NCBI RefSeq assembly: GCF_000026545.1
Contig: NC_011601.1
DNA length: 64,000 nt
Direction: 5' to 3' (one strand)
DNA from: Escherichia coli O127:H6 str. E2348/69
GTDB taxonomy: Bacteria; Pseudomonadota; Gammaproteobacteria; Enterobacterales; Enterobacteriaceae
Shown: positions 17,031-18,847 of the stretch, in pieces
How the letters are laid out: each line of letters opens with the position of its first letter
Numbering within the stretch: position 1 is the first letter of the stretch
Notes under the pieces: generated by a model
The model's input: the letters and a program-made list of their open reading frames with translations, nothing else
Told to the model about the DNA's origin: nothing
Database searches by the model: none
Translations under genes and position numbers: made by a program

Positions 17031-17062
17031 ATAGCCCAAATCAAACTTGATGAGGGCTATAT
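17031..17062 (-). terminator. Intrinsic terminator downstream of the cargo operon
   Basis: Hairpin atagccc/gggctat immediately after the nucleotidyltransferase stop, followed on the minus strand by a T-rich tract. Confidence 0.45.
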
Positions 17063-17064
17063 TT

Positions 17065-17724
17065 TTAGTAATTGAATGATGTGCCATTCCCGTTAGTTAG
17101 ACTTTTTATGCTTTTTCTGAGGAATGGGTGTGTCATAAAACCGTTGACTCTCACACCGTAGACTGATAGAAAATTTTGGCATATAGGTATCAATTTTTTG
17201 CTATCATCCTTTGATGATTTTAAATCAATAAGTGTTGATATGTCTTGGTGTGTTATTAATTCTGTTGAAAACTTAAGCGCCAAGCTTTCTTTTGCGAAAA
17301 TTGGCGCTCGCATTTCTGCACTGAGTGATATAAGAATTGTCCTTACGCACCATGATATCCTTTTATTCATTAAGAATTTGTTTTGAATGTTATTGTTTTC
17401 AGCACATATAAAATGCAATAATTTTGTTGCAGTATCAATATCATCTGAATAATTTTCTTTGTATTTAAATGATGATGATATGCTTTCAAATAGCTCCTCG
17501 TTAAATATTGGCAAGCCCTCTTCCTTCAAGTGCAAGGCAAATAAACTCCCACCTTCCATTATTTTCTTCGCCAATGCAACAGGATACATTGCTATATTTA
17601 ACTTTCCTTTCACAATCATTTTGTAATGTAGGCCATCGTATATAGCAAACATATCCACATCAGATGCCTCAGTTTGATCTCCACGAGCAGTGCTTCCATA
17701 AATAACCAAAGATTTAATATCCAT
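17065..17724 (-). CDS. Minimal nucleotidyltransferase (Pol-beta superfamily) with C-terminal helical domain
   Basis: 219 aa; 'VIYGSTARGDQTEASDVDMF' matches the GS-x(9-13)-DxD nucleotidyltransferase signature; ATG start 1 nt after the upstream stop (TAGcATG); GC about 33%. Confidence 0.7.
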   Translation of the reverse strand: MDIKSLVIYGSTARGDQTEASDVDMFAIYDGLHYKMIVKGKLNIAMYPVALAKKIMEGGSLFALHLKEEGLPIFNEELFESISSSFKYKENYSDDIDTATKLLHFICAENNNIQNKFLMNKRISWCVRTILISLSAEMRAPIFAKESLALKFSTELITHQDISTLIDLKSSKDDSKKLIPICQNFLSVYGVRVNGFMTHPFLRKSIKSLTNGNGTSFNY

Positions 17725-17725
17725 G

Positions 17726-18847
17726 CTAAGACCTTGATGTACATATTTTATTTATTAAAGTTGGTATTAATATACCATACCACCATACACCAATCATCAT
17801 GTTAATCAGGTGTATTGTTTCATCTAGCTGCCCAATACCACTGGTCGTGCGCTCTGTTGAATACTTCGTGTAACCTGTAAGAAGAGTTATATCAACTGCC
17901 TTCATGAATGCCCCAATAACATCACCGGATGATGTTATTGCATAGATAATCGTAAATACAATCATGATAAATAAACCAACAAATATACATCTGAATAAAC
18001 TCCCTCCCCAACCATTAATGAGACCTGATGTATTTATTATAAAATTCTCAATCACTGATTTTAACAGCAGTATGCTGTACCATAGCTTTTTTGTTACTTT
18101 TGAATTACTACGCTCGAAGAGTAGAGATTTCTGCTTAGATTTTTGTTTGCATTTGAAGTGAACCTCTACCGCCTGATAATACACTTCATCATCCGGAATT
18201 GTAGATAATGAATTAAGCAATATCTTAGAGCACTTTGTTTTAGTTCCATAGGACCTGTATTTTTGGTACTCAGGTGTTGTACCTTCTTTCTCACAAATAT
18301 CTTTATCTTGATTTACAAATAGCGCACCAATAAATTTACTTGGCTCGATATATGTATTATTTAACTTTGTTTCATTACCGGAATAAGATATATCCTTATA
18401 TGTACAATTATTAAACTGACAGTTTTCAAATGATGCCATTGAAAAACTGCATTCGATAAAGGTACAATCTACAAATTTAATATTTTTGAAATTTGCATAA
18501 CCAAAGCAAACCTTCCTGAACTCACAACTCTTAAATGTTATTCTTATTCCTTTGTTGTCACCATATATATCACACTCTGTAAATACATATCCTGAAAAGA
18601 ATTTATTTTTAAAATTTTCAGGTTTATGTTTCTTTGATAAAATCAATTTTCCTTCATAGTCTTTAGGAGTAGCTATATGCTCAGGAATAGTTAAGTCTAT
18701 CGCTACCTTTCGAGGTCCAGAGTTGTTTTTCCCGTTAATATTTAGGTCGTCAAGTCCCCATTTGATGAACTCTTCCAGATTAATGTTAGGATCATATGTC
18801 GCATCCCAATAATTTTTTATCCGATGCTGCCTGATGCTGTTGGCCAT
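17726..18847 (-). CDS. Pentapeptide-repeat protein with C-terminal two-TM, K+-channel-like pore module
   Basis: 373 aa; every-fifth-residue Phe periodicity 'FTECD.../FKSCE/FRKVC/FGYAN/FKNIK/FVDCT/FIECS/FSMAS/FENCQ/FNNCT'; C-terminus TM1 'LFRCIFVGLFIMIVFTIIYAI', pore-like 'GDVIGAFMKAVDITLLTGYTKY' (compare KcsA 'DALWWSVETATTVGYGD'), TM2 'IHLINMMIGVWWYGILIPTLI'; GC about 33%. Confidence 0.65.
   Translation of the reverse strand: MANSIRQHRIKNYWDATYDPNINLEEFIKWGLDDLNINGKNNSGPRKVAIDLTIPEHIATPKDYEGKLILSKKHKPENFKNKFFSGYVFTECDIYGDNKGIRITFKSCEFRKVCFGYANFKNIKFVDCTFIECSFSMASFENCQFNNCTYKDISYSGNETKLNNTYIEPSKFIGALFVNQDKDICEKEGTTPEYQKYRSYGTKTKCSKILLNSLSTIPDDEVYYQAVEVHFKCKQKSKQKSLLFERSNSKVTKKLWYSILLLKSVIENFIINTSGLINGWGGSLFRCIFVGLFIMIVFTIIYAITSSGDVIGAFMKAVDITLLTGYTKYSTERTTSGIGQLDETIHLINMMIGVWWYGILIPTLINKICTSRS

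Follow-up and report, generated by a model that had tools for sequence, protein, structure and literature searches.

Hailong, a system of the two proteins HalA and HalB, is described in Tan et al. 2025 (Nature 643:794), where a C-terminal tyrosine of HalB is reported to act as the primer of DNA synthesis. In the characterised homologues, oligodeoxyadenylate made by HalB represses HalA (PMC12265719; titles of PDB accession codes 9nyi and 9dbh), and the title of 9nyi describes HalA in complex with oligodeoxyadenylate. Both protection against phages and the role of phage DNA exonucleases as the trigger are reported for these homologues (PMC13276650, PMC12657230), one passage of PMC13275509 speaks of "poly-dA adducts of HalB", and a Hailong from a P4 hotspot is among the cloned loci that have been challenged with phages (bioRxiv 10.64898/2026.02.27.708500). 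Panoptes/MISS and Clover follow a similar logic, in which a constitutive nucleotide signal likewise represses an effector and phage interference releases it (PMC12657230, PMC12265719). They differ in their signals, which are 2'3'-c-di-AMP or p3diT where Hailong uses a DNA oligomer, in their enzymes (mCpol, CloB) and in their effectors (2TM-beta, dNTPase), and our comparison detects no homology with the E2348/69 pair. CBASS type I is also a two-gene module of a nucleotidyltransferase and a membrane effector with an abortive-infection outcome; its signal, however, is activating and made on infection only, and its CD-NTase has a fold unlike that of HalB.

We compare with these systems a two-gene operon of Escherichia coli O127:H6 str. 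E2348/69, which lies in a stretch of 64,000 nucleotides of contig NC_011601.1 (the window). Very probably, at roughly 90%, the operon is an intact copy of the anti-phage defence system Hailong, with halA followed by halB. The argument is built on the similarity of both proteins to HalA and HalB, in sequence as well as in fold, on the conserved catalytic, basic and C-terminal tyrosine residues of the transferase, and further on the conserved pore segment of the effector, the conserved adjacency of the two genes and their place in the slot where a mobile element carries its defence cargo. The features of the operon are:

17726..18847, minus strand: halA (gene 1), open reading frame of 373 aa, read as the Hailong effector; named halA in RefSeq
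17065..17724, minus strand: halB (gene 2), open reading frame of 219 aa, read as the Hailong Pol-beta-type nucleotidyltransferase, with oligodeoxyadenylate synthesis assigned by homology
18848..19373, minus strand: non-coding leader 5' of halA in the cargo slot, presumed promoter region; a strain-variable segment
17018..17060, minus strand: terminator-like hairpin (17031-17060) with a U-rich tract, immediately past the halB stop codon

The junction of the two genes reads ...TCT TAG c ATG GAT..., so that stop and start codons are 1 nt apart, and the tight coupling on the minus strand that had been predicted is found as described. The same is true of the low GC content, predicted as about 33% against about 50%: the fraction is 0.333 in the operon, 0.356 in the cargo slot (16860-19373), 0.432 in the rest of the element and 0.509 in the whole window. 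Both open reading frames are intact and cover their NCBIfam profiles. The hairpin folds as RNA at -13.8 kcal/mol (z=-4.1 relative to shuffled sequences); a simple scan for consensus terminators misses it. In the leader, the promoter scan places sigma-70-like hexamers at 19094-19065 and 19034-19007, with site counts no higher than expected by chance. In strain 2011EL-1370-2 an IS1 element is inserted within this leader segment.

HalA consists of an N-terminal cytosolic pentapeptide-repeat domain followed by a C-terminal two-helix domain that is predicted to form an ion channel. Where ten or more consecutive repeats had been proposed, about 16 five-residue units run in register through residues 84-163, ten of them very regular (EFRKV CFGYA NFKNI KFVDC TFIEC SFSMA SFENC QFNNC TYKDI SYSGN); Pfam Pentapeptide_4 matches with E=1.2e-9, and the AlphaFold model has short strands across residues 82-163. 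The membrane module anticipated after the repeats is present: one hydrophobic helix spans about 279-305 and a second about 339-370, and the stretch that separates them forms a further, short helix (310-321) and then a loop with the segment DITLLTGYTK. Across 10 homologues this segment is invariant or almost so (D319, I320, T321, L323, G325, Y326, T327 and K328 are invariant). The HalA equivalog model of NCBIfam (NF051894) scores 295.2 bits over positions 1-337 of its 338, above its cutoff of 250. PDB entry 9nyi matches with E=8e-35 by sequence, and a search with the family profile brings this to E=4.8e-62. Chain A of the same entry is the best Foldseek match of the AF2 model (E=2.7e-19, TM 0.61/0.68). 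Identity to the solved HalA is about 31%, and a 25-residue low-confidence insert near residues 55-80, common to the closest relatives only, sets the E2348/69 protein apart from it. A tblastn search of GenBank phages with HalA gives no match. In PHROGs, HalA and HalB both belong to families labelled "unknown function" (phrog_24530 and phrog_24076).

The original prediction likened the segment between the helices to a degenerate K+-channel pore. HalA does have in common with the tetrameric cation channels (Kv/Kir/KcsA) the layout of TM helix, pore helix, filter loop and TM helix, with a conserved loop that contains G-Y, and Foldseek returns Kv4.2, Shaker and Kv3.1, weakly (E about 0.03-0.06). 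The Pfam search of HalA gives no IRK match, TGYT stands in place of the canonical TVGYG filter signature, and the channel would be gated by bound DNA. For a related HalA, an independent group reports a Pfam IRK match and a K+ channel as the best Foldseek match. The resemblance is real but weak, and the original prediction read the K+-channel-like pore correctly.

In the transferase, the GS...DxD motif, predicted as canonical, is present as G10-S11 and D22-x-D24 and is invariant in 15 homologues, as is K169. D22 and D24 align with the DxD of the solved HalB (D21/D23; PDB entry 9dbi is the D21A/D23A mutant), and K169 aligns with R164, the residue mutated in 9dbj, so that the positive charge is kept with lysine for arginine. 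The C-terminal residue is Y219, in a tail (215-219) that is predicted to be disordered; a tyrosine is among the last 1-7 residues in each of the 15 aligned homologues and in every HalB-like open reading frame that adjoins a HalA homologue. A 50-residue tail query for the C-terminus of the solved HalB gives no match. Entries 9dbh, 9dbi and 9dbj match HalB with E=4e-19, and with E=1.9e-45 over the full length when the profile is used. Identity to the solved HalB is about 35%. The AF2 model has a pLDDT of 91, and its top 13 Foldseek matches are all HalB chains (TM 0.74-0.82). The NCBIfam model for HalB (NF051895) gives E=1.9e-55 and 187.7 bits, 2.3 short of a cutoff of 190 that is an annotation threshold and not a biological feature; the next-best family is MntA with 22.8 bits. 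Because the score falls just below the cutoff, halB is unnamed in RefSeq, where it is labelled "nucleotidyltransferase domain-containing protein".

With the two proteins placed, the pair as a whole can be compared with the published system. The E2348/69 operon and Hailong have identical gene order and tight coupling, the same layout of HalA (pentapeptide-repeat cytosolic domain, then two-helix channel), and in HalB a common fold, the catalytic DxD, a positively charged residue at the position of R164 (here lysine) and a tail with a tyrosine near the C-terminus; known copies and the E2348/69 pair are both cargo of mobile-element defence hotspots. The differences are those of identity, of the HalB score and K169, and of the HalA insert given above, together with the carrier: der is here the integration site of a small element, which is neither a P2 phage nor a P4 satellite. 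The gene pair also recurs elsewhere. In a sample of viral contigs and contigs encoding distant representatives, HalB comes directly after HalA in loci L002-L007 and L014-L017, distant members included; these amount to nine distinct further contexts, all of those examined, because L016 and L017 have identical proteins, and they answer the original suggestion that homologous pairs be checked for co-occurrence. A profile scan of genome contigs with the HalA alignment returns only 2 loci, since its peptide patterns were strict. The pair adjoins a genuine P4-type primase in Citrobacter (L007), and it lies between tail genes in viral contigs.

PADLOC v2.0 (2023), one of the checks originally proposed, gives no match for HalA and only weak nucleotidyltransferase-motif matches for HalB, to the candidate families PDC-S09 and PDC-M05A; as its library is older than Hailong, the miss is not counter-evidence. 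A 2026 preprint states that Hailong is detected by neither DefenseFinder nor PADLOC. The main text of Rousset et al. 2022 (PMC9122126) contains none of the terms pentapeptide, nucleotidyltransferase, NTase or ion channel. The structural comparison that had been proposed alongside PADLOC returns HalA and HalB as the best Foldseek matches of the two proteins. The original prediction is upheld in part: its core, an anti-phage, growth-arresting module on a mobile element with a membrane channel effector under a small nucleotidyltransferase, is borne out by the Hailong homology of both proteins.

We turn to the element that carries the operon, for which the following features are used:

15842..15862, no strand: attL core (TTACTTACTTTTCTTAATATG), from the empty-site comparison
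15959..16558, minus strand: HTH protein of AlpA type, a regulator or similar to excisionases, encoded at the element's distal end (Phage_AlpA E=3e-8, residues 145-191; phrog_66)
16860..19373, no strand: variable cargo slot, occupied here by Hailong
19992..20990, minus strand: rolling-circle (HUH) Rep-like protein (Pfam REP_ORF2-G2P E=1.2e-5, residues 78-176)
21043-21738: hypothetical protein of 203-231 aa (231-aa open reading frame)
21825..23096, minus strand: tyrosine integrase (phrog_1 integrase E=1.2e-65; RefSeq tyrosine-type recombinase)
23313..23333, no strand: attR core (TTATTTGCTTTTCTTGATATG), final der codons and stop codon

The carrier is an integrase/HUH-Rep/AlpA element of about 7.5 kb that interrupts der at its 3' end. 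Strain Z1323HEC0423 has the empty site: there, window position 15862 is joined to 23314 with a 20-bp overlap; attL and attR are identical at 18/21 positions, and the reverse complement of attR encodes ...HIKKSK*, in agreement with the C-terminus of Der. The integration site is not a tRNA gene, since a tRNA scan finds none in the window, and the Rfam scan of the element returns only a sub-threshold Trp_leader over the der 3' end, which we take as chance. The full gene set of the element is the integrase, the hypothetical protein of 203-231 aa (no match in a Pfam search of the 231-aa frame), the HUH Rep-like protein with the motifs HLHMIV at residue 123 and YLTK at 172, HalAB, a 58-aa open reading frame and the AlpA-like HTH protein. 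The operon sits, much as had been stated, between the Rep-like gene and the distal AlpA-type HTH gene. The accompanying label of a P4-integrase element suits the integrase type; the element is otherwise not P4-like, and we rejected a P4-like satellite as the carrier because neither the P4 alpha primase-helicase nor other P4 genes are among its genes. The single cargo slot of the element is delimited by comparison with strain AH50, whose alignment breaks at 16859/16860 and 19373/19374. A CBASS cyclase and a 2TM effector occupy the slot in AH50, and other strains have PDC-M43 or an ATPase+DUF2357 (McrBC-like) pair in it. There is some chance, which we put forward tentatively, that the carrier belongs to an undescribed family of minimal phage satellites or integrative mobilisable "defence cassettes" and, as a separate matter, that this Hailong clade uses another DNA signal or trigger.

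A mechanism for the operon can be outlined from the characterised homologues, to which the proteins are 31-35% identical. In the uninfected cell, HalB, of Pol-beta type, would constitutively polymerise dATP into a short single-stranded oligodeoxyadenylate, with its flexible C-terminal tyrosine (Y219 here) priming the synthesis. The oligomer would bind the cytosolic pentapeptide-repeat domain of a tetrameric HalA and keep the ion-channel domain shut. On infection, phage DNA exonucleases would degrade this guard DNA and release HalA, whose opening would depolarise the membrane, arrest growth and so block phage propagation. For the E2348/69 allele, we infer from these relatives that HalB makes DNA which binds to HalA, that exonucleases are the trigger and that the operon protects against phages. 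The solved HalA and HalB are only about 31% and 35% identical to the E2348/69 proteins, so this clade could have another signal, one of another length, or another trigger.

Such a difference leads to the closest alternative, in which the pair is homologous to Hailong but functionally divergent, with another nucleic-acid signal, another phage trigger or an inactive allele. The distance from the solved proteins, the HalB score below the curated cutoff, K169 in place of R164 and the HalA insert confined to close relatives are what one might expect of it; the residues of the active site and the tail, however, like the pore segment, are all invariant across the family, the reading frames are intact with their profiles covered, and the fold matches are strong, so we regard functional divergence as unlikely. 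A different logic altogether would have the transferase sense infection and produce a signal that opens the pore, as in CBASS. The gene logic of a nucleotidyltransferase with a TM effector is superficially equal, and a true CBASS type I pair occupies the equivalent slot in strains AH50 and PS2Canimalfeces12. Gene 2, however, has no CD-NTase or cyclase match in PADLOC or NCBIfam, where the true AH50 cyclase gives E=1e-170; the signal of the homologous system is constitutive and inhibitory (PMC12265719, PMC12657230), and the solved HalA is in the DNA-bound, repressed state by the title of 9nyi. We consider an activating signal very improbable.

The original prediction drew its analogies from CBASS type I and from HEPN-MNT, and neither carries over: there the signal activates or a toxin protein is modified, whereas Hailong relies on a constitutive inhibitory DNA (PMC13276650, PMC12657230, PMC12265719). 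A toxin-antitoxin system of type VII, like MNT/HEPN, in which the transferase nucleotidylates the toxin, would account for the MntA match of gene 2, which spans residues 2-34 only and lies far below its cutoff of 60 bits, for the PDC-S09 and PDC-M05A matches, which are likewise weak and lie within the N-terminal 40 residues that bear GS...DxD, and for a Foldseek match of HalB to MNT at E about 0.1. But the partner is a membrane channel and not a HEPN protein, and over its full length gene 2 matches HalB, not MntA, which makes this pairing extremely improbable. Least credible of all, to a point that is almost negligible, is an antibiotic-resistance locus made of an ANT(4')/Lnu-type nucleotidyltransferase and a Qnr/MfpA-type pentapeptide protein. 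Kanamycin nucleotidyltransferase is indeed the next-best fold for HalB (TM 0.47-0.51, E about 1e-6), and Qnr and MfpA match weakly over the repeat region of HalA. Placement of the transferase in the ANT/Lnu families, which had been named as grounds for abandoning the defence reading, is not what the profiles give: the ANT(4')-I model (ANT_4p_I), whose cutoff is 350 bits, gives 11.5, and the TM of about 0.5 compares with about 0.8 for HalB. The Qnr/MfpA models reach 12-18 bits against cutoffs of 240-500, and the membrane channel domain of HalA is absent from Qnr proteins.

We return to the reading of the locus as Hailong and to what it means. The operon is already known: Hailong was published in 2025, its structures are solved (9nyi, 9dbh, 9dbi, 9dbj), NCBIfam models are curated and halA is named in the RefSeq record. 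For these reasons the locus has little discovery value, and the view that the pairing was not a described system is overturned. Reasoning from the raw sequence nevertheless arrived at the correct class, that of an effector for defence and a transferase that regulates it. For the organism, the Hailong of the prototype EPEC strain E2348/69 is a natural one, apparently intact, and belongs to a divergent clade. The carrier integrated at der, in which four cargos can replace one another (Hailong, CBASS I, PDC-M43 and McrBC-like), is an example of defence-cassette swapping and could serve in finding new defence systems.

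We consider here the two genes on the minus strand, which lie precisely where the original prediction placed them. The hairpin that follows gene 2 accounts for the start coordinate of 17031 in that prediction.

17726-18847, minus strand: gene 1 (halA), ORF of 373 aa
17065-17724, minus strand: gene 2 (halB), ORF of 219 aa
17018-17060, directly 3' of the gene 2 stop: hairpin with a U-rich tail (-13.8 kcal/mol, z=-4.1)

The junction of the two genes reads TCT TAG c ATG, with the claimed single nucleotide between stop and start. The GC content of the operon is indeed low, 0.333 as compared with 0.356 in the strain-variable segment (16860-19373), 0.432 in the remainder of the carrier element and 0.509 in the whole window.

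The gene pair is Hailong, an anti-phage system that is already known. RefSeq already names gene 1 halA in E. coli E2348/69, to which the window is 100% identical. The claim of novelty falls. The NCBIfam model NF051894 ("anti-phage Hailong system effector protein HalA") matches gene 1 with 295.2 bits (cutoff 250) over profile positions 1-337 of 338. Against the solved HalA (PDB accession code: 9nyi, "HalA in complex with oligodeoxyadenylate"), gene 1 gives E=8e-35 at about 31% identity, and a profile of ten HalA homologues gives E=4.8e-62 over chain residues 31-370. The AlphaFold model of gene 1 (pLDDT 76) has 9nyi_A as its best Foldseek match (E=2.7e-19, TM 0.61/0.68). The architecture read earlier from the sequence holds as well: residues 84-163 can be divided in register into units of five, ten of them very regular (Pfam Pentapeptide_4, E=1.2e-9), matching the ten or more pentapeptide repeats proposed, and the two-helix membrane module corresponds to two C-terminal hydrophobic helices (~279-305 and ~339-370), with a short helix and a loop containing DITLLTGYTK between them. 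Among the ten homologues, the pore segment residues D319, I320, T321, L323, G325, Y326, T327 and K328 are invariant, as is the last helix (WWY..IPTLIN).

Gene 2 gives a parallel picture. NF051895 ("anti-phage Hailong system nucleotidyltransferase HalB") matches it with E=1.9e-55 and 187.7 bits, narrowly below the cutoff of 190. This is consistent with its RefSeq name in E2348/69, "nucleotidyltransferase domain-containing protein", though the adjoining halA is named; the generic name is a small annotation gap for the Escherichia/Serratia clade. Gene 2 matches the HalB entries 9dbh, 9dbi and 9dbj with E=4e-19 at about 35% identity, and a profile of 15 HalB homologues matches them at full length with E=1.9e-45. 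The first Foldseek matches of its model (pLDDT 91) are 13 HalB chains (TM 0.74-0.82), and the next fold, kanamycin nucleotidyltransferase, reaches a TM of only ~0.5. The predicted GS...DxD motif is present as G10-S11 and D22-x-D24, and the residues invariant among the 15 homologues include G10, S11, D22, D24, H65, E69, K169 and Y219. D22 and D24 coincide in the alignment with the DxD of solved HalB, and the title of 9dbi names a D21A/D23A mutant; that of 9dbj names an R164A mutant, and 9dbj differs from 9dbh at the site aligned with K169. Y219 is the C-terminal residue, in a tail (215-219) predicted to be disordered, and a tyrosine is found within the last 1-7 residues of every HalB-like ORF adjoining a HalA homologue. 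Tan et al. reportedly found that a C-terminal tyrosine primes DNA synthesis. PMC13275509 mentions "poly-dA adducts of HalB".

A CBASS-like activating system is excluded, as no cyclase model matches gene 2, while a real cyclase in the same search gives E=1e-170. MNT-HEPN is excluded both by the score of MntA (22.8 bits, cutoff 60, in the motif region only) and by the absence of a HEPN partner. The resistance readings, ANT/Lnu for gene 2 and likewise Qnr, lie more than an order of magnitude below the curated cutoffs. The only live alternative is a Hailong that is functionally diverged or inactive, for which the 31-35% identity to the solved proteins and the K-for-R substitution in HalB (K169 vs R164) can be cited.

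For Hailong itself, PMC13276650, PMC12657230, PMC12265719 and PMC13275509, together with PDB titles, describe the mechanism in characterised homologues. By analogy, HalB would constitutively produce single-stranded oligodeoxyadenylate, which would bind HalA and hold the channel closed; phage DNA exonucleases would remove it, and the freed HalA would depolarise the membrane, leading to growth arrest. The direction of the signal logic in the original prediction would then be reversed, as homologous HalB makes constitutive DNA that keeps the channel closed. While homology, conservation of key residues, linkage and context of HalA and HalB are observed directly, we infer the DNA product, HalA binding, trigger and protection of the E2348/69 allele from those homologues.

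The two genes also travel together: HalB directly follows HalA in all ten loci examined, which make nine distinct contexts because two of them (L016 and L017) encode identical proteins. The loci are four IMG/VR viral contigs, Yersinia frederiksenii, Citrobacter sp. R56 and contigs encoding the distant HalA representatives P0040, P0080 and P0150. At E<=1e-30, 157 representatives of HalA clusters (50% identity) come up in an exhaustive profile search, so the family is moderately large. HalAB adjoins a P4-type primase in Citrobacter, and in viral contigs it is flanked by tail-fibre and tape-measure genes, which fits a 2026 preprint (bioRxiv 10.64898/2026.02.27.708500); the preprint describes a Hailong from a P4 hotspot that was cloned and challenged with phages, its HalA having an IRK Pfam match and a K+ channel as best fold match. 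In the distant metagenomic pair of L016 and L017, a co-oriented Metallophos (calcineurin-like phosphoesterase) gene lies 3' of halB (L016 2810-3475, L017 2685-3347), and this locus may be a three-gene Hailong variant.

We turn to the slot that holds the operon. In an alignment with the element of strain AH50, only 16860-19373 differs. The contents of the slot, here and in sister elements (L009 11027-13451; L010 ~10000-12900; L018 ~1400-6900), are as follows, the genome counts being assigned partly from common alignment breakpoints.

Hailong: 4 genomes
CBASS (type I) cyclase and 2TM effector: 2 genomes
PADLOC candidate system PDC-M43 (A+B): 5 genomes
849-aa ATP-binding protein and 618-aa DUF2357 protein (McrBC-like): 7 genomes

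One more element copy is degraded by insertion sequences. The four alternative defence cargos place the operon in a genuine defence-cargo hotspot. The original prediction has the class right, a mobile defence module of pore effector and regulating transferase. In the ETEC O6:H16 strain 2011EL-1370-2 (L013 8953-9650), the leader that precedes halA is interrupted by an IS1 and the integrase gene carries a frameshift; this copy is decaying, and its halAB expression may be altered.

The carrier itself is delimited by an empty site in strain Z1323HEC0423, where window 14001-15862 runs straight into 23314-24500 (overlap of 20 bp), giving an element of ~7.5 kb. Its features are as follows.

15842-15862 and 23313-23333: imperfect 21-bp direct repeats (att), 18/21 identical
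Gene for a tyrosine integrase
Gene for a protein without detectable family
Gene for a Rep-like protein (Pfam REP_ORF2-G2P; HUH motif HLHMIV at 123, YLTK at 172)
Genes for HalA and HalB
16663-16839, plus strand: acidic 58-aa ORF (phrog_35119, E=5e-14), conserved in the backbone and adjoining the AlpA-like gene
Gene for an AlpA-type HTH protein

The 58-aa ORF lies on the strand opposite to every other carrier gene. A P4-like satellite is rejected, since neither a P4 primase nor other P4 genes are found among the genes of the element. No tRNA gene is found within the window; the right-hand repeat is the final codons and stop of der, and insertion (15842-23333) rebuilds the der C-terminus.

Several repeats lie within the element. 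In the conserved backbone, just 3' of the Rep-like gene, a 22-nt sequence with a GC-rich palindrome, CGCCGCCT(C/T)TGGCGGCTTTCTC, occurs twice (19833-19854 and 19886-19907, 53 nt apart) and could be an origin/nick site, or terminators. Between the integrase start and der, CACCGTGTACCCAA occurs in two exact copies (23132-23145 and 23153-23166, 21 nt apart), and a related motif, TGGGTACAC..GTGTACAC, is found at 15924-15962 and 23185-23223. Such copies may serve as arm-type sites for the integrase or as binding sites for a regulator. Outside the element, an IS4-family transposase remnant (15568-15833) immediately adjoins attL and is older than the insertion, because empty-site strains have it too. 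Between yfgJ and the carrier lies a CS54-like adhesin cluster (9508-15108), in which a 771-aa RatA-like adhesion-domain protein, well short of the length of the RatA models, precedes sinI and sinH (intimin-like inverse autotransporter).

Of 5426 complete E. coli genomes, just 19 have the carrier backbone, which lies beside der in all sister elements inspected. This small der-integrating carrier with an interchangeable defence slot is the one part that may be undescribed.
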